Below are positions 5,967-22,820 of a stretch of 64,000 nt of DNA, piece after piece. The notes under the pieces were generated by a model that did not search any database, was not told the origin of the DNA, and saw nothing but the letters and a program-made list of their open reading frames with translations. The position numbers and the translations under genes are program-made. Each line of letters begins with the position of its first letter. Positions within the stretch are counted from its first letter, which is position 1. This stretch comes from an uncultured Clostridia bacterium (GTDB taxonomy: Bacteria > Bacillota > Clostridia > Christensenellales > UBA1242), in NCBI GenBank assembly GCA_947629745.1, contig CANREZ010000004.1:8808-72807 (forward strand), read 5' to 3'.

Positions 5967-6120
5967 GATAAAAATTAAATTTTATACCATAGACAGTACG
6001 GGACATATGTCTTAATAATCGTACCGAGGTTAAAATGTTTAGATTGTGAATTTTGCAACCTTACGCTTTAACTTTGGCGTAAGGTTTTATTTTTATCCAC
6101 ATTTATAAAGGAGGATAATA
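5967..6120 (+). promoter_or_regulatory. Ribosomal protein L10 leader-like 5' UTR with terminator/attenuator hairpin
   Basis: About 150 nt of untranslated leader lies between the promoter and rplJ. A perfect 10-bp stem AACCTTACGC (6057-6066) / GCGTAAGGTT (6078-6087) is followed by TTATTTTTAT, 30 nt before the rplJ RBS. This matches the known L10(L12)4 autoregulatory attenuator layout of Firmicutes. Confidence 0.7.
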
Positions 6121-15468: not shown

Positions 15469-17502
15469 TTAGAATCCGCCGAAGCCGCCAAACCCGCCGA
15501 AGCCGCTCTTCCTCTGTGGGAGGACTACTTGGTTACGATTGCGGATATCGTAGAGCACTTGGGTCTCATCGAAGAATCCAGCTAGCGTCCTATCTGGCTC
15601 AGGCCTACGCATATCAAAGAATTCAGAGAGTTTGTAGGATGGTTGGAATGGCGCTTTGATAGGAGGTTCCTTTAGGATAGAGACTATGAGGTCTTCCTTT
15701 AGCGAACCTAATTCGTCTGGGTAGATAAGTGGACGTTGTTCCTTGCTAACTTGTGTTGAGGAGCTCTTACTCTTCTTGTCACCCTCACCGCTAGATGAAG
15801 ACGACTTTGTTGTCGTGGTGACTGTGGTGTTACCGCAACGCTCAGAGAACGCTTTCTTCGTCTCATCATCGTTTGAGGCAATATACACGTGCATATTGCA
15901 GTTGTCACGCACGATGGCTGCCACTTCGTTGCCATACTTGGTATTTAGCTGAGTGTAGGATTGTAGTATCAGACAGAAGAATATGTGACGAGAACGTGCC
16001 ACAGTGATCTTGTTGTCAAACCTATCAATTGGTGGCATATTCGCGAACTCATCTAGGATGAAGTACGTTGGATGTTTTAGATAGGCCTTTTGGTCGTCAT
16101 TTGCTATTCTACCATTCTCACGAGCAATCTCAGTTAAGGTCTTGTACAATTGTGAGATGAATAGAGTAGCTATCTTGTGCCTACCTACTTTCTCATCAGG
16201 AATCTTGATGAACAATGCAGTAGATTGGTCGTCAAAGTGGGATAGGTCCATCTCATTTGCACTAGTGCAGTAGCATATACCTGCATCGGTAAACGGCTCT
16301 AGATAACCAGAGGAGATAGATAGGTAGTTTTGCTTGGTCTTATCGCTATTCTTTATAACCTCACTGGATAGATTCACCGAGTGACAAGTCACAGGCCTGC
16401 CGTTGAAATAATCCGTGATGGACAACATATCGTTATTTGGGTCATTATCTCGGTAGTTTGCAATCTGCGCTACGTTAAAGAAATTGAATTTGTCCCTTGT
16501 CATGCCAAGGTCTGGATTATCGCTATCCTCTAGCATAGCGAGCATCACGGCGTTAACGAAGTTTTTTGCACCCATTTCCCAACGTGGGTCATTCTTTGAC
16601 TCGACGATACACAGCGCTTCGCAAATTTCTTTTAGTTCAGCCTCTGCAAGCACTCTGTATTGTTGCTGAGATGCTGTTAGTGCGCGCTCGAGATCTTCCT
16701 TTGTAGCATAAGCATTTCCCTCATATTCGTACCATGGGGAAGTGTATGTGACGTCTTTTGAATAAGCAAGGGTCGGGTAACTACTTGGCTGGTCACCCAT
16801 GTTGTGCACGCCCACGCGCTGCTTTGCTGTGCGTGCTTTTTCCCACAAATTGTATGCTCGCTCCATAGGATTCCACCTAGTGGATTTGAATGGTTCATCT
16901 AGGTTAAAGACCATCACACGGTAGCCTTGTTTCCTCAGTTTCTCACTGTGGAGGTTGTACAATTCACCTTTTGGGTCAGTGATGACAATGCTTGGCTTTG
17001 CAGCGCTCTCACTGAATATTTGTATCAAAGGATTGACGAATTGCGTAGTTTTACCAGCACCGGTAGTACCTATGACCAGACAGTGTAGGTCTTTATCATA
17101 CATGTTGACTATGAGTTTGCCATTTTTCTTTTCCACACGCAGAGGGAAACCAACTTTTTTCGAATATTTCAATTTATCATAAGTGGTGAACATATACCTT
17201 GGGGTGTCGTGCAATTCTTTTTCCGTGCACCAATGTTGGTCATAGAATTTGTCCTTATCGGTCTTCACACTCGATCCACCCGAGTCGTCCATCTTCTTTA
17301 GAGCACCTTTTACGCATATTAGTATGGCGATGGCAAGACCCACACCACCTAGCATCAGCGCAAATCCTGAGAAGAAGTCGCTCGCAGCGAGGTTGAATCC
17401 ATCCGATCCGCTGCCAGTCAGACCATTCAGGAATGCTCCTACTAGCACACCAGCGATAGCTCCTCCCAAACACGATATTAGATATTTAACAAAATTTTTC
17501 AT
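15469..17502 (-). CDS. traG: Type IV coupling protein (TraG/VirD4 family ATPase)
   Basis: N-terminal TM helices are followed by Walker A VIGTTGAGKTT, DPKGE, Walker B YFILDEFANMPPI and RSRHIFFCLILQSYTQL, in the order typical of TraG/VirD4. RBS GAGGG. The C-terminus is an unusual GFGGFGGFGGF. Confidence 0.9.
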   Translation of the reverse strand: MKNFVKYLISCLGGAIAGVLVGAFLNGLTGSGSDGFNLAASDFFSGFALMLGGVGLAIAILICVKGALKKMDDSGGSSVKTDKDKFYDQHWCTEKELHDTPRYMFTTYDKLKYSKKVGFPLRVEKKNGKLIVNMYDKDLHCLVIGTTGAGKTTQFVNPLIQIFSESAAKPSIVITDPKGELYNLHSEKLRKQGYRVMVFNLDEPFKSTRWNPMERAYNLWEKARTAKQRVGVHNMGDQPSSYPTLAYSKDVTYTSPWYEYEGNAYATKEDLERALTASQQQYRVLAEAELKEICEALCIVESKNDPRWEMGAKNFVNAVMLAMLEDSDNPDLGMTRDKFNFFNVAQIANYRDNDPNNDMLSITDYFNGRPVTCHSVNLSSEVIKNSDKTKQNYLSISSGYLEPFTDAGICYCTSANEMDLSHFDDQSTALFIKIPDEKVGRHKIATLFISQLYKTLTEIARENGRIANDDQKAYLKHPTYFILDEFANMPPIDRFDNKITVARSRHIFFCLILQSYTQLNTKYGNEVAAIVRDNCNMHVYIASNDDETKKAFSERCGNTTVTTTTKSSSSSGEGDKKSKSSSTQVSKEQRPLIYPDELGSLKEDLIVSILKEPPIKAPFQPSYKLSEFFDMRRPEPDRTLAGFFDETQVLYDIRNRNQVVLPQRKSGFGGFGGFGGF

Positions 17503-17604: not shown

Positions 17605-17861
17605 GATGTGACACGCCAGTGTCCTTGAGTATAGTGAGATTATCCATGAAAATGCGACGTAAAACATAACTGTGTATCAACTTTATTCTAATTTAAGGCG
17701 CCCCGTAGTAGGGGGAGCTGTTGGCTCTTGCCAACTGAGGGGATTGTACTCAATTATGACCTTTTTATATAGGCCGCCCTTAGTAAAGGGGGCTGGATGC
17801 GTTAGCAGACTGAGGGGATTGAGCCGACTTTTATCCCTCTTTGTGCCAACTTTATGCCCAC
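17605..17861. repeat. Repeat mosaic A in the traG/pilin divergent spacer (b1 partial, a1, a2 modules)
   Basis: b1 is at 17605-17640 (GATGTGACACGCCAGTGTCCTTGAGTATA). a1 is at 17695-17746 and a2 at 17771-17823, both of the type AAGGCGCCCCGTAGTAGGGGGAGCTG-hairpin-CTGAGGGGATTG. A TGCCAACTTTATGCCCAC tail resembles the b-module end. Confidence 0.8.
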
Positions 17862-18141
17862 TAATAGAAAGTAGCTACCATATTTTTTCATTTCTTATAA
17901 TTTGCTTGTCATCATCAAGGGACATATCGTGCCATCTGATGGGACTAATGTCGACTTCTATCTCCCTCCATATTTTCCTACTCCACCCATCTTTTCTATA
18001 TATTACTATAATAATTATAAATATAAGAATATATGTATAAATATCCAAGTAATTTGGCGCACGTTGTGGCACTTTATGCATTAGGATTTATAAAGAAATG
18101 GCAATTGTAGTAAAAAATTTTATAAAACGTGTGAAAAATAT

Positions 18142-18170
18142 TTGACGATGGGCACGGTATTCGCTAAAAT
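18142..18170 (+). promoter_or_regulatory. Predicted promoter of pilin-like gene 1
   Basis: TTGACG (18142-18147), a 17-nt spacer, then TAAAAT (18165-18170), about 45 nt before the ATG. Confidence 0.6.
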
Positions 18171-18216
18171 ATACTTAAGATTGGTAGCAGCGCATGCTAC
18201 TATATGGGAGGGGAAA

Positions 18217-18555
18217 ATGACAAAGTTCTTAACTTTACTAGGAGAGGTTGAATCTGTTCAGGCACAAGATTGGTACACAAAAATCCTAAAGCCAATTTTG
18301 GATGGAGTTAGAATTGCATTGATTCCTATCATAATAATTGCAGCAGCTGCTGGAACAGGCTACGCAATTTGGTTAGGTGTCAAACTTGCAAAGGCTGATA
18401 GCGATGACGAGCGTACCGAGGCAAAGAAGAAGATGATTTACTTCATCATTGCATTCGTTGTGACAATTATCCTGTTAGTTGTGTTACAGATTCTTGCAAG
18501 TAATGTACAAGTTATCTATGACTTGGCAACTAAAACACAAGATGCTGCAGCATAA
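18217..18555 (+). CDS. Small 2-TM membrane protein, VirB2/TrbC pilin-like T4SS component (paralogue 1)
   Basis: ATG 18217 follows GGGAGGGG. Two hydrophobic helices are separated by a charged loop: IPIIIIAAAAGTGYAIWLGVKLAKADSDDERTEAKKKMIYFIIAFVVTIILLVVL. This is collinear with IPAGGTVYAVSIGIKLARADGEESRKEVKKRLVNSIIGLVAVIGLFIILFLYF in ORF 19236-19730. Confidence 0.7.
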   Translation: MTKFLTLLGEVESVQAQDWYTKILKPILDGVRIALIPIIIIAAAAGTGYAIWLGVKLAKADSDDERTEAKKKMIYFIIAFVVTIILLVVLQILASNVQVIYDLATKTQDAAA

Positions 18556-18579
18556 TGAGCAAAAATTTAGTAGAAAAAG

Positions 18580-18606
18580 TAGAGCCGTGAGGCTCTATTT
18601 TTTTTG
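18580..18606 (+). terminator. Rho-independent terminator of pilin-like gene 1
   Basis: Stem TAGAGCC / GGCTCTA with loop GTGA, followed by a T9 run. Confidence 0.85.
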
Positions 18607-18666
18607 TGCATGAGGGTGAGGGATAAAAATTAAAGTTGGTACATAATGTAGGCAAGAATGCTGATT

Positions 18667-18868
18667 GATGTGGCATGCCACTGTCCTTGATTATAATAAA
18701 GTATGTTTGTTTGATTATTCAAAGGAATGAAGTTGGTATGTGGAATAGGCTCTAGTTCCCACCTTAATACCAACTTTGTTACCCACATTCTAATAATAAA
18801 GTGATGGTAGAGTTGTCTTAAATTGTTATAGATAACTCATTACACTTTAGGAGAGTGGCGTGCCACAC
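18667..18868. repeat. Palindromic element formed by b2 (+) and b3 (-) modules
   Basis: b2 at 18667-18743 and a diverged reverse-complement copy b3 at 18761-18868 are separated by 17 nt. The termini are GTGGCATGCCACTGTCC and GGAGAGTGGCGTGCCAC. There is an internal AAGTTGGTATGTGG / CCAC..ATACCAACTT pairing. The a4 fragment ACTGAGGGGGATTGAG follows at 18867-18882. Confidence 0.8.
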
Positions 18869-19235
18869 TGAGGGGGATTGAGTGTGCTTACGTGCTCGCC
18901 TTGGTACCAACACTTAACCTATCTATATACTATCTGGTCAAATTGATAGTTGCACAAACTACCACGATGTTCCCATAAACACTAATACTATTGTCAATAA
19001 GCATCTATATTATGACAAAAACGCATTAAATTAGAGCAACAAAGAAACCGCCAAGATATGAGGAAGGGAGAGTGGTTATGATCACTATAATTTTCCCATA
19101 CGGCGTCATACTCTAGAGAGTGTGTAACTAGATATAATTATGTGGAATAAATATGAATCAATAATAATTTAGATACGAATTGTATAGACAAGATAATATT
19201 TTTGGTGTAAAATATGATATATGAGGTATGAAAAT

Positions 19236-19730
19236 ATGAGGACCAAGAATTTAAAGAGAAATCTTGCCATAGTATTTGCCGTGAGCTTAGTGCTAGTGCT
19301 AATTAGTATGGTTGTGATGGAAATTTGCACCGGCCATAGTGTGAGTGCACTGCTAAATAATGGCATATTAGGTGACCCTAATACTTCAAGCAGTATGCCA
19401 AATACTAGTGGTGATCAATATACCGCTGATGACCCTAGATTCGCTGAGATCATGGGTGGATTCAAGGTATTCTTCATTGTGATGTTGATAGTGATACCTG
19501 CTGGTGGCACGGTGTATGCAGTGTCAATTGGTATCAAACTTGCACGTGCTGATGGTGAAGAGTCGAGGAAGGAAGTAAAAAAACGTTTGGTCAATTCCAT
19601 CATCGGTCTAGTTGCTGTGATTGGTCTATTCATTATATTATTCCTATACTTCAATAACTATCGCGTTATAAATGATTACCTCCGCCAGATGTTCGGCACT
19701 CTGCATTCATCCAATATTCCACAAGAGTAA
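19236..19730 (+). CDS. Small membrane protein, VirB2/TrbC pilin-like T4SS component with signal-peptide-like N-terminus (paralogue 2)
   Basis: ATG 19236 lies 9 nt after TGAGG. The N-terminus is MRTKNLKRNLAIVFAVSLVLVLISMVVMEI. The C-terminal 2-TM core is collinear with ORF 18217-18555. Confidence 0.7.
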   Translation: MRTKNLKRNLAIVFAVSLVLVLISMVVMEICTGHSVSALLNNGILGDPNTSSSMPNTSGDQYTADDPRFAEIMGGFKVFFIVMLIVIPAGGTVYAVSIGIKLARADGEESRKEVKKRLVNSIIGLVAVIGLFIILFLYFNNYRVINDYLRQMFGTLHSSNIPQE

Positions 19731-19798
19731 ACGTGGTTGATATAACGAAATATTTGGTTTGTGTAAGTAAAAACATATTTAAAATAATAAAAATTAAA

Positions 19799-19825
19799 AT
19801 ATCCCTCAAATGGGATATTTTTTTG
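19799..19825 (+). terminator. Rho-independent terminator of pilin-like gene 2
   Basis: Stem ATATCCC / GGGATAT with a 6-nt loop, followed by a T run. Confidence 0.8.
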
Positions 19826-19893
19826 ATTAATACTACACCTCATTAGGCGATTAGGCGCTCACAAGTGCGGATAAAAATTAATTATAACCTTGT

Positions 19894-20044
19894 AAGGCGC
19901 CCCGTAGTAGGGGGAGCTGGATGCACGAAGTGCAGACTGAGGGGATTGAGCAAGCTCCTACGCTTACCCCACATACCAACTTCATTCTCTCTAGATAATC
20001 AAACAAACATATTTTATATAACCCAGGAGAGTGGCGTGCCACAC
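19894..20044. repeat. Repeat mosaic C upstream of virB4 (a3 module plus b4 module in minus orientation)
   Basis: The first 26 nt of a3 (19894-19950) are identical to a1 (17695-17720). b4 (19969-20044) is about 80 percent identical to the reverse complement of b2 (18667-18743). Confidence 0.85.
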
Positions 20045-20153
20045 AAACTTTTGGGCAAAAAGATAATTTGGGTTATTTTAGTTTGTAAAATGACCCAGAT
20101 GTTGTATAGTATTATATATAATCTAACTTTATTATAGATAGAGGTAAATAAAA

Positions 20154-22820
20154 ATGGCTGCAAAATTTATTCCAAGACGTACTAAACTCAAATTGGAGTT
20201 GTACAAGAATATAACATTCGGGGACGTGGGCATTGCCCTAGTCGGTATCGCGATACTATTCTTGCTACTATTCTCCACATTCCAGTTCCACATATATGTG
20301 GCAATAGCATTCGCTACACTGTGGTGTATGCTATTCGTCCCAGTCTCGGATGGTGTGAAAATTTATGGCGCGGTGATCCTCGCATTCAGATTCATCTCGT
20401 TTAGGAAATCTTATGAGAAGAAATACACCAACAAAGCACATGACATCAAAAAGATTCTCCCATACGAGGGTATCTCCCTTGGACAATTCATCTCCTATGG
20501 TGAATACTACGGCATGGTGCTTGAGATCGACCCTATAGAATTCTTCCTCTTAGATGAGGAGAAACAAGAGGGCGTGGTGCGAACCATGACCAACGCAATC
20601 CATAGACTTGGCATGGACCAGTACATGACCATTGTGAAATTGAAGAAACCTATGATCCTCGACCAATTGCAAAATTATGAAGACGACAAATACAATACAC
20701 TGCTTGATATGACAGAACGTGGTCTGTATGAGAAATATGAGATTGAGGCAAGGTCACCTGTCTTTGAGGAAAGATTAGCCACAATCAGACAACTAAATTA
20801 CGACAACAAGATCCTAAAGAGCCACTACTACTTCGTAGTCTACGACAAGAGTAGGGAGCAACTTAGGAGTTCCATAATGGGTATGATATCGGCACTAAGT
20901 GCCTCAGCTACGCCAATAACTGCCAACATATTGTCAGGAAATGAGCTTTTAGCGTTCCTAAAAGCAAATTACGATAGCAACTTTGATGAACGTGATCTAG
21001 ATATCCTCACAGCAGATGAGCAAGTGGCTTGGACTAGGCCAAACAAAGTGAGGTTCTCTAGCCTAAATACTTATATCGACGACGTGGCATACCGCACGTT
21101 CACCATATCCGAATATCCAATATATGTGCCAAATGCTTGGGCTTATCCGTTATTTGAGCTCGACCAATGTAGAGTCGTGGTCAATATAGAGCCTATAGGG
21201 AAGTTTGAGGCTGAGAAGATGCTGGATAGATCCATCGTGGAGGTGGATGGCAAACTGCGTAAGGCTGGTGGAGAGGGCGCAAAGATTGAGTTACAGACCC
21301 ACCGTGAGACATTGACCGACTTGCTCGCATCACTTAAGAATAGTAGTGAAAACCTCTTCAACGTCAATATCCATATCGTGGCAGAGGATAGCCAAAAGAA
21401 AGAAGTGCGTGCAACGCTAAAGCAGAATGGCTATAGATACACCGAGAATTTCGGTAGACAAGTGGATGCCTTCATATCTACTTCTCCATCAAGGCTCGAC
21501 AAATTGAAGTATTACAAACGTGGTATGCAGACAAGTACTGTTGCTGCTATGTTCCCATATATCTCGTCAGCTTTGCAAGATAAGCGTGGATTCTACCTCG
21601 GGTATAACCAATATCCAGTGTTCACCGATTTCTTCCAGAGAAACGATATTCGTACCAATTCCAATATGATGATAATAGGAAAGTCTGGTAGCGGAAAATC
21701 TTATGCTACGAAAACTCTACTTGCTAACCTCGCTGCGGACAACACGCGCATATTTATCCTCGACCCTGAGGATGAGTACCGACCAATATGCGATCACTTG
21801 GGTGGCAAGATTATCGATGTCGGTAATAGTAGTGATGGTATCTTCAATCCATTCCATATATTCACCACACTTAAGGCTGATGAGGGTGATAGCGATGACT
21901 CCTACAACGCGCATTTGCAGTTCCTTGAGCAATTCTTTAGGCTGATATTGCCGGGGATGAGTGCCGATGCTTTTGAGAAGTTAAATTCATTGTTAGTCAA
22001 ACTGTATGCATCAAAGGGCATTGACGAGACCACAAGGCTTGAGGCTCTAAGACCTGAGGATTATCCAATATTTGACGACCTTATCAAGATCATAGATAAG
22101 GAACTGAAGACCGAGAAGGACGATTATCAGCACTCGCAGCTGCAGACCATTCGTGTCTATATAGAGAAATTCGCTTCAGGCGGCAGGAACTCCAACCTTT
22201 GGAATGGTCCAACCAGCATTGAGACCAATGAAAACTTCGTTTGTTTCAACTTCCGTACTCTAACTAACAACCGAAACGACATTATCACCAACGCGCAGAT
22301 GTTACTTGTCTTCAAGTATCTAGATAACGAGATTAGTAAGAACAAGGACTTCAACGACAAGTACTTCCCAGAGATGCCAGGTGAGGATAGGGATGAGAAC
22401 GAATTCAGGCGAATAATCGTGGCTGTCGATGAGGCGCACGTCTTCATCAATCCAAAGTATCCAATAGCACTGGACTTCATGGCTAACATGGCAAAACGTA
22501 TCAGAAAGTATCATGGAATGCAGATAATTATCACGCAGAATATCCACGACTTCGTGGGATCAGAGGAGATTGAGAGGCAGTCCACTGCAGTTATCAACGC
22601 GTGCCAATACTCCATGATCTTCTCACTTGCGCCAAACGATATGACCGAGCTTATCACTCTGTATAAGAACGCAGGTGGTATCAACAAGGAAGAGCAAGAC
22701 CAGATCGTGACCGCACCTCGTGGACAATGCTTCCTCATCACGGGCCCTATGAATAGGAGTATAGTGAGGATTGAGGCACTGCCAACTGTGCAGTATTTAT
22801 TCAAACGTGACGATGAATAG
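20154..22820 (+). CDS. virB4: VirB4/TrsE-type T4SS ATPase with N-terminal membrane (VirB3-like) segment
   Basis: RBS GAGG. N-terminal helices are VGIALVGIAILFLLLF, IYVAIAFATLWCMLFVPV and YGAVILAFRFI. Walker A is IIGKSGSGKSYATK and Walker B is RIIVAVDEAHVF, followed by IIITQNIHDF. Confidence 0.9.
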   Translation: MAAKFIPRRTKLKLELYKNITFGDVGIALVGIAILFLLLFSTFQFHIYVAIAFATLWCMLFVPVSDGVKIYGAVILAFRFISFRKSYEKKYTNKAHDIKKILPYEGISLGQFISYGEYYGMVLEIDPIEFFLLDEEKQEGVVRTMTNAIHRLGMDQYMTIVKLKKPMILDQLQNYEDDKYNTLLDMTERGLYEKYEIEARSPVFEERLATIRQLNYDNKILKSHYYFVVYDKSREQLRSSIMGMISALSASATPITANILSGNELLAFLKANYDSNFDERDLDILTADEQVAWTRPNKVRFSSLNTYIDDVAYRTFTISEYPIYVPNAWAYPLFELDQCRVVVNIEPIGKFEAEKMLDRSIVEVDGKLRKAGGEGAKIELQTHRETLTDLLASLKNSSENLFNVNIHIVAEDSQKKEVRATLKQNGYRYTENFGRQVDAFISTSPSRLDKLKYYKRGMQTSTVAAMFPYISSALQDKRGFYLGYNQYPVFTDFFQRNDIRTNSNMMIIGKSGSGKSYATKTLLANLAADNTRIFILDPEDEYRPICDHLGGKIIDVGNSSDGIFNPFHIFTTLKADEGDSDDSYNAHLQFLEQFFRLILPGMSADAFEKLNSLLVKLYASKGIDETTRLEALRPEDYPIFDDLIKIIDKELKTEKDDYQHSQLQTIRVYIEKFASGGRNSNLWNGPTSIETNENFVCFNFRTLTNNRNDIITNAQMLLVFKYLDNEISKNKDFNDKYFPEMPGEDRDENEFRRIIVAVDEAHVFINPKYPIALDFMANMAKRIRKYHGMQIIITQNIHDFVGSEEIERQSTAVINACQYSMIFSLAPNDMTELITLYKNAGGINKEEQDQIVTAPRGQCFLITGPMNRSIVRIEALPTVQYLFKRDDE

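Follow-up and report, generated by a model that had tools for sequence, protein, structure and literature searches.

The 64-kb stretch of DNA analysed here (the window), from contig CANREZ010000004.1 of an uncultured Clostridia bacterium, encodes components of a type IV secretion system (T4SS): a VirD4/TraG-type coupling protein, two pilins and a VirB4-like ATPase. The non-coding spacers between these genes carry a GC-rich module of about 52 nt, present as three full copies (a1 to a3) and one 5'-truncated fragment (Table 1). An earlier note, made from the sequence alone, had described these copies, each with a sequence-variable but self-complementary insert, and had proposed for them an origin of transfer (oriT) or a regulatory hub. 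The modules belong to a structured repeat family that is dispersed through Clostridia genomes and that elsewhere brackets a gene for a DUF559 protein, forming cassettes with sharp boundaries. We conclude that the window modules are probably solo copies of this dispersed gut-Clostridia repeat, which is found in metagenome-assembled genomes (MAGs) of Oscillospirales and Christensenellales type, and are passengers of the T4SS locus.

Table 1. Repeat modules and type IV secretion genes in the window
Feature	Position	Strand	Evidence or detail
Module a1, solo copy, 'v1' type	17697-17746	+	Covariance model R1, 60.8 bits, E 4e-19
a1 first hairpin (P1)	17698-17718	+	GCGCCCCGT/AGT/AGGGGGAGC; two mismatches to consensus
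a1 second hairpin (P2), GTTGGC-TCTT-GCCAAC	17720-17735	+	Fold
a1 3' block, CTGAGGGGATTG	17735-17746	+	Exact
Module a2, solo copy, different subfamily (GGCCGCCC...GGGGGCTG)	17772-17821	+	Covariance model R1, 43.2 bits, E 6.5e-13
a2 P2, TGC-GTTA-GCA	17798-17807	+	Fold
a2 3' block	17810-17821	+	Exact
Module a3, solo copy	19896-19948	+	Covariance model R1, 48.8 bits, E 6.7e-15
a3 P2, TGCAC-GAA-GTGCA	19922-19934	+	Fold
a3 3' block	19937-19948	+	Exact
5'-truncated module, P1 missing	18855-18880	+	P2-like hairpin and 3' block
Fragment P2-like hairpin, GTGGC-GT-GCCAC	18855-18866	+	Sequence
Fragment 3' block, CTGAGGGGGATTG, one extra G	18868-18880	+	Sequence
VirD4/TraG-type coupling protein (traG)	15469-17502	-	Window open reading frame
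Pilin 1, PF18895	18142-18555	+	Window open reading frame
Pilin 2, PF18895	19221-19730	+	Window open reading frame
VirB4-like ATPase (virB4)	20154-22820	+	Window open reading frame

All the sequences quoted in the earlier note for the three modules and the fragment are present in the window. The full copies run along the strand of the pilin and virB4 genes, and all three are significant against a covariance model (CM R1) built from 31 copies taken from other genomes only (E 4e-19 to 7e-13). With filters off, this model found no further copy in the 64 kb, and a blastn comparison of the spacers with the window limited the repeats to three T4SS spacers. Copies a1 and a3 are identical over 27 nt (17694-17720 and 19893-19919), one more than had been counted; for a 24-mer, no chance match is expected even when three mismatches are allowed. 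The 12-mer that ends a1, a2 and a3 occurs exactly three times in the window, always on the forward strand. The variable inserts fold as hairpins in all three copies, as had been claimed. Copy a2, which lies 75 nt downstream of a1, had been read as a1 with a C-G pair replaced by T-A; it instead represents a different subfamily, GGCCGCCC...GGGGGGCTG, whose P1 variant is also present in MAG CANPYH. Copy a3 is a mosaic, with 27 nt at its 5' end the same as in a1 and 20 nt at its 3' end the same as in a2. Some 25-27 nt beyond their 3' ends, a2, the fragment and a3 are each followed by a 'CCAAC(T)TT' box (17845-17852, 18905-18912 and 19975-19982), and the repeated unit here therefore reaches about 40 nt past the module. 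The fragment scores only 5.7 bits (E 9); it is therefore counted as homologous on the strength of its 3' block and of the shared 3' flank with this box.

To follow the module beyond the window, we scanned one genome per species with an exact pattern fitting a1-a3. The matches listed comprise more than 115 stretches, of which two, in a Balneolaceae and a Gammaproteobacteria MAG, look like chance. All others came from Clostridia, namely from about 30 MAGs with the labels Ruminococcus, Christensenella, Oscillospiraceae, Acutalibacteraceae and Eubacteriales and from one isolate, Neglectibacter caecimuris. The stretches examined of a single MAG hold up to 27 copies, and copies are frequently found at contig ends. 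They adjoin unrelated housekeeping genes (rlmH, gyrB, ABC transporters, sigma factors, spoVA), with no bias in orientation to their neighbours (76 versus 61 upstream, 66 versus 56 downstream). Besides solos there are tandem copies with gaps of 22-334 nt, as for a1 and a2, convergent doublets and alternating arrays; in Ruminococcus-labelled MAGs, gene-less convergent doublets have their copies about 45 nt apart. One contig bounded by inverted copies contains only housekeeping genes. Two gene-less doublets of MAG JAFUQX (L034 5960-6225 and L052 1120-1385) show direct duplications of 29 and 24 nt, which are themselves hairpins, one of them terminator-like, and are unusually long for a target-site duplication. 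Carriage by phages was rejected, as no viral contig matched the module. We likewise rejected a partner of the RAYT (REP-associated tyrosine transposase, where REP is repetitive extragenic palindrome) or IS200 type, there being no recurrent transposase among 602 clustered open reading frames (ORFs) within about 8 kb of modules.

The fold of the family comprises a P1 hairpin, GCUCCCCUU/AAGGGGAGC with the loop AGU, a sequence-variable P2 hairpin that is often closed as C-GNA-G, and the 3' tail, in the consensus aaGGCTCCCCTTAGTAAGGGGAGCTG-TC(hairpin)GA-CTGAGGGGATTG. In 150 module matches from genome loci, 95% of alignment cells pair and all five P2 pairs are altered on both sides, over 157 cells; none of 500 shuffles reached the observed score, and slid controls collapsed. 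(nhmmer, less sensitive than the CM at 100 versus 176 matches, was not used.) A second set of 101 matches came from loci found through a protein and not through a DNA pattern. Here 91% of cells pair, compensatory double changes occur in 12 of 14 pairs, including seven of nine in P1, and again 0 of 500 shuffles reached the score. The two hairpins are real at the level of the family and under selection, and the earlier description of a conserved fold around a variable, always self-complementary insert is supported across these copies from other genomes. That note had also regarded many scattered copies, with no gene-context bias and no significant covariation, as the mark of a generic repeat: the scatter and the absence of bias are indeed found, whereas covariation is strong.

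P2 was constrained by neither pattern nor model; in it, G.T pairs outnumber A.C pairs by 20 to 7, and C-GNA-G triloops make up 39 of the 103 distinct P2 hairpins. These features suggest that the module strand is the folded one, and they fit single-stranded DNA as well as RNA. Across subfamilies, three runs change in concert: the C-run of the P1 5' arm and the G-runs of its partner arm and of the 3' block. Either G-rich segment could thus be a pairing partner of UCCCCU. P1 has recurrent non-Watson-Crick positions in the modules of loci L003-L196 (alignments A2 and A5), namely G.A at pair 8-66 and G.G at pairs 9-65 and 14-61, a set to which the a1/a3 variant CCCCGTAGTAGGGGG belongs; G.A also occurs at the base of P2 in the same alignments. 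Such positions may be recognition features rather than decay.

The module was not recognised as an Rfam family in the earlier note, and permissive searches agree. An Rfam 15 cmscan of the window returned only the ribosomal protein L10 leader (RF00557, 84 bits, 5969-6100, upstream of rplJ) at the gathering threshold and nothing over the modules at E up to 10; seven loci of other genomes with consensus copies gave tRNAs only, at E up to 1. Hammerhead, twister and pistol ribozymes, group II domain V, C/D box and tRNA-like folds do not fit by eye, and none came from cmscan. An integron attC site was rejected on anatomy, because the conserved 5' and 3' blocks form no R''/R' inverted pair and the first block is its own hairpin; no integrase search was made.

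Clustering of ORFs gave the lead to a partner gene: a family of proteins of about 120 amino acids encoded 0-34 nt from modules in three genomes. These are DUF559, Vsr-like PD-(D/E)XK proteins (Pfam E 8e-30; PDB 3hrl E 8e-18), for which the nearest NCBIfam model is the YcjD equivalog, with a score below its cut-off. In a reverse sample, we chose 80 metagenome loci solely because they encode relatives of this protein, and then searched them with the CM. Modules were present in 76 of the 80. At the 3' end of the DUF559 gene, 69 loci had a module, inverted in 54 of them and mostly overlapping the last codons; 51 had one within 150 nt upstream, in the sense orientation in 44; and 45 had both. The resulting cassette consists of two inverted modules that bracket a DUF559 ORF of about 350 nt. 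Its upstream copy, of the v2 type, reads in the main class AGCCTCCCTTGTGTAAAGGGAGGTGGC-(P2)-GACGGAGGGATTGTC-ATG, and its downstream inverted copy, of the v1 type, GGCTCCC...GCTG...CTGAGGGATTG, with the stop codon of the ORF inside the module; gene-less doublets pair v2 and v1 in the same way.

Because the 3' block of the upstream copy stands shortly before the start codon (GGAGGGATTGTC-ATG), this block serves as a Shine-Dalgarno sequence: the 3' block of the upstream sense module, GGAGGGATTG, is the ribosome-binding site of the DUF559 gene. A role for this copy in Shine-Dalgarno and anti-Shine-Dalgarno pairing is plausible. Taken further, the module as a whole could be a translational switch in the DUF559 5' untranslated region, in which the anti-Shine-Dalgarno-like arm of P1, CCUCCC, is paired with a decoy Shine-Dalgarno sequence while the 3' block provides the real one; solos would then be decayed or exapted copies that give hairpins or ribosome-binding sites to neighbouring transcripts. 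The spacing of 6-7 nt between 3' block and ATG, the joint change of the C-run with both G-runs and the preference for G.U over A.C on the module strand all speak for such a switch, as does the Shine-Dalgarno sequence of Escherichia coli ycjD within a 17-bp hairpin (see below). Yet each cassette's downstream module runs antisense to the mRNA and is conserved just as well, solos favour neither orientation relative to genes, none of the window copies stands ahead of a credible ORF, and dispersal is left unexplained; we regard the switch as distinctly unlikely to account for the family.

Cassettes that are 93-100% identical occur in unrelated flanks, with two distinct contexts on the left and three on the right. 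The homology stops exactly at the outer base of the modules, at AAGCCTCCC on the left and at GGGAGCC on the right, and no target-site duplication is evident at the junctions. Near-identical cassettes with sharp ends in differing flanks mark a discrete unit that has been moved or copied. Given its dispersal, the DUF559 bracket and these sharp ends, the family therefore behaves like REPs and REPINs (REP doublets forming hairpins), or like miniature inverted-repeat transposable elements (MITEs), with a Vsr-like nuclease rather than a RAYT. Published classifications group Vsr and DUF559 with the homing endonuclease of a group I intron (PDB 3r3p) as a single PD-(D/E)XK clade and name no function for DUF559 (PMC1189080, PMC3424549). 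The searchable literature on DUF559, ycjD and REPIN/RAYT yielded no association of DUF559 with a repeat.

We propose that the complete form of the element is the pair of inverted modules around the DUF559 ORF, a cassette found in different genomic places, from which gene-less doublets, tandem arrays and solos would derive, as REPs and REPINs do from RAYTs or MITEs from insertion sequences (ISs). The DUF559 nuclease may recognise the hairpin ends, possibly with the module strand as single-stranded DNA, and may drive the copying of cassettes and of ORF-less doublets, in a REPIN-like system in which a PD-(D/E)XK nickase replaces the HUH transposase; we advance this role for the enzyme only tentatively. 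Solos such as a1-a3 would be immobile relics shaped by recombination, of which the a1/a2 mosaic a3 may be an example. Alternatively, the repeat could be spread by another enzyme, and DUF559 could be a selfish, homing guest inserted between the arms of pre-existing doublets. Doublets and cassettes share the same v1/v2 geometry, modules outnumber DUF559 genes about 50:1 in the genome-scan loci, and the clade's intron endonuclease provides a precedent (PMC3424549). We consider homing rather doubtful, however: neither a RAYT nor another recurrent transposase-like gene lies within about 8 kb of the copies, and homology between cassettes at different sites spans both modules and ends at their outer bases, which fits movement of the whole unit, although co-conversion could mimic it.

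With a module that is a dispersed repeat forming the ends of DUF559 cassettes, the window copies are most likely neither an oriT nor a regulator of the T4SS. The proposed tie to the T4SS finds no support. The module is present many times per genome in about 30 other Clostridia genomes, by unrelated genes, and the CM finds none in the 72 kb of five syntenic VirD4-pilin-VirB4 loci of relatives (filters off). The syntenic order takes in rplJ/L, a giant ORF, VirD4 (47-57% identical to that of the window), pilins and VirB4; the VirD4-pilin spacers of these loci measure 213-379 nt, versus 639 nt in the window. The placement of a1 and a2 between divergent traG and pilin 1 promoters stands only as far as a consensus scan, which matches promoter-like sites on both sides. 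By the same kind of match, the fragment and a3 each follow a terminator-like hairpin and precede the next promoter-like site, for a3 the pilin-2 terminator-like hairpin at 19796-19821 and the virB4 promoter-like site at 20083-20110. Positions of this sort are neutral space, in which repeats accumulate. Three solos and one fragment would have landed in, or recombined into, the non-coding T4SS spacers and enlarged them, most likely as passengers with no role in secretion.

If the modules were instead transcribed as a T4SS-linked regulatory RNA or leader, their fold would control the expression of traG, pilin or virB4. The covariation-conserved fold, the position of all window copies on the pilin/virB4 strand and a promoter-like GTGACA-16-TATAGT at 17608-17635 (+), which could read through a1 and a2 to pilin 1, would suit such an RNA. 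Against it, the five syntenic loci lack the modules, which elsewhere are scattered in both orientations by unrelated genes; the better of the promoter-like sites are found downstream of the modules, a3 and the fragment follow terminator-like hairpins, and Rfam has no match. We judge this very unlikely. An oriT, with the hairpins and the conserved single-stranded tail as the binding and nicking site of a relaxase for the adjacent T4SS, is hardly credible at all. A GC-rich hairpin next to a conserved unpaired tail does adjoin the coupling-protein gene, and C-GNA-G triloops suit hairpins of single-stranded DNA, the d(GCGAAGC) hairpin being known for its stability. However, an oriT is expected once per element, and the module occurs in three to four local copies here and in tens per genome elsewhere, unlinked to T4SS genes and missing from the related T4SS loci; no relaxase domain was found among those window ORFs that were scanned, and the locus is chromosomal, by rplJ/rplL, dnaE and spo0A.

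The genes around the T4SS in the window are dnaE, the L10 leader with rplJ/rplL, spo0A, PBP5-type carboxypeptidases and scpA, and these neighbours therefore indicate a Firmicute chromosome with no obvious conjugative element. Near the T4SS genes lies an ORF of 2,623 amino acids without Pfam hits. The T4SS genes (VirD4, PF18895 pilins and VirB4) and this ORF of about 2,600 amino acids are a chromosomal set (7380-30227 in the window) that is syntenic beside rplJ/rplL in the window and in a relative (L001); in L198-L200, an ORF of about 2,600-2,850 amino acids again follows VirD4, and the stretches examined end short of rplJ/rplL. As no relaxase was seen among the ORFs scanned (window, L001 and L197-L200), the T4SS of the window may not be a conjugation system.

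Several observations weigh against solo copies of a DUF559-linked repeat as the reading of the window. Both the excess of G.T pairs and the counts of covarying pairs derive in part from alignments that had been fitted to the model. Three of the 80 DUF559 loci lack any module and a fourth has only a weak, distant match; moreover, because these loci encode relatives of module-adjacent proteins, the link to DUF559 may hold only for one subfamily. The 64-kb window itself contains no DUF559 gene, and its three copies all fall within one 2.3-kb stretch, which could mean local co-option rather than chance. Finally, there is no regular target-site duplication, and five of seven doublets have no direct flank repeat of at least 9 nt.

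Among the closest known systems, the family resembles REPs, their mosaic arrays (bacterial interspersed mosaic elements, BIMEs) and REPINs with their RAYT (TnpA-REP): short structured extragenic repeats in tens of copies per genome, arranged as solos, inverted doublets and tandem or alternating arrays, with stems kept by compensatory change and a single small nuclease gene between two inverted copies. It differs in that a module has two hairpins and a conserved tail over about 52 nt, whereas a REP is one palindrome of 20-40 nt. REP stems have a GTAG or CGTC tetranucleotide at the foot (PMC3733652); the module has no such foot, its consensus starting with aaGGCTCCCC and holding TAGTA in the P1 loop. 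The bracketed gene encodes a Vsr-like PD-(D/E)XK protein instead of an HUH Y1 transposase; no Y1 transposase occurs among the recurrent neighbours within about 8 kb of copies, and DUF559 is the only gene that is recurrently flanked. In addition, the module core is conserved across several Clostridia families rather than within one genus.

With MITEs and ISs the family shares a unit of about 0.5 kb with terminal inverted repeats of about 55 nt, the ribosome-binding site of the gene in the left repeat, identical units in different flanks, and ORF-less inverted doublets of about 140-170 nt that resemble deletion derivatives. Terminal inverted repeats of this type are found in the cassettes and doublets of other genomes and not in the window, because its copies are solos in direct orientation. 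Unlike MITEs and ISs, the family leaves no regular short target-site duplication and exists mostly as solos and, to our knowledge, the DUF559 protein belongs to no recognised transposase family (ISfinder families). A third likeness is to I-Bth0305I (PDB 3r3p, of the Vsr-like EDxHD type), which is of the same PD-(D/E)XK clade (PMC3424549) and is likewise encoded by a selfish mobile nuclease gene. I-Bth0305I has its home in a phage group I intron, whereas the DUF559 gene is free-standing between structured repeats, in a cassette that involves neither an intron nor a target gene; viral contigs, too, gave no match to the module.

In E. coli K-12 (NC_000913.3, locus 1351040-1351830), the Shine-Dalgarno sequence of ycjD, which also encodes a DUF559 protein, lies within a perfect 17-bp hairpin. 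The end of the ycjD ORF falls in a GC-rich hairpin repeat, of which an inverted relative stands 154 nt further downstream. A 71-nt query that includes this downstream relative found matches in all 5,426 complete E. coli genomes, at a median of 16 places in each. Starting from ycjD, the association of DUF559 with repeats may be general, and copying driven by DUF559 may extend to ycjD and its GC-rich repeat of about 16 copies.

The spacers also contain a second, unrelated set of repeats, which the earlier note overlooked. The pilin-2 gene lies, together with its promoter-like site and a3, between the arms of a 76-nt inverted repeat (18669-18743 and 19969-20043, 87% identical). The sequence AGGAGAGTGGCGTGCCACAC is identical at 18849-18868 and 20025-20044, and in the inverted relatives at 17605-17633 and 18667 a promoter-like GTG(A/G)CA-16-TATA(G/A)T overlies the palindrome GTGGCATGCCAC. 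This set may represent either an operator/promoter cassette or a segment capable of inversion; its sequences AGTGGCRTGCCACA and CCACATACCAACTT were not found in any of 200 other loci searched.

For the window, these data point to passenger repeats, rather than an oriT or any dedicated regulatory RNA, as the cause of the enlarged T4SS spacers. On a wider view, they reveal a structured repeat family that lies outside Rfam, has no description in the literature searched, spans several Clostridia families and is tied to DUF559. Repeats of this kind break metagenome assemblies, many copies being found at contig ends. For DUF559, a large and very widespread domain without an assigned function, the family suggests a testable role as a nuclease that acts on repeats with hairpin ends. 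It also offers a second case, beside RAYTs and REPINs, in which a multitude of structured repeats accompanies a single-copy nuclease gene. Should DUF559 prove to be the mover, the cassettes and their derivatives would constitute a new class of miniature mobile element.

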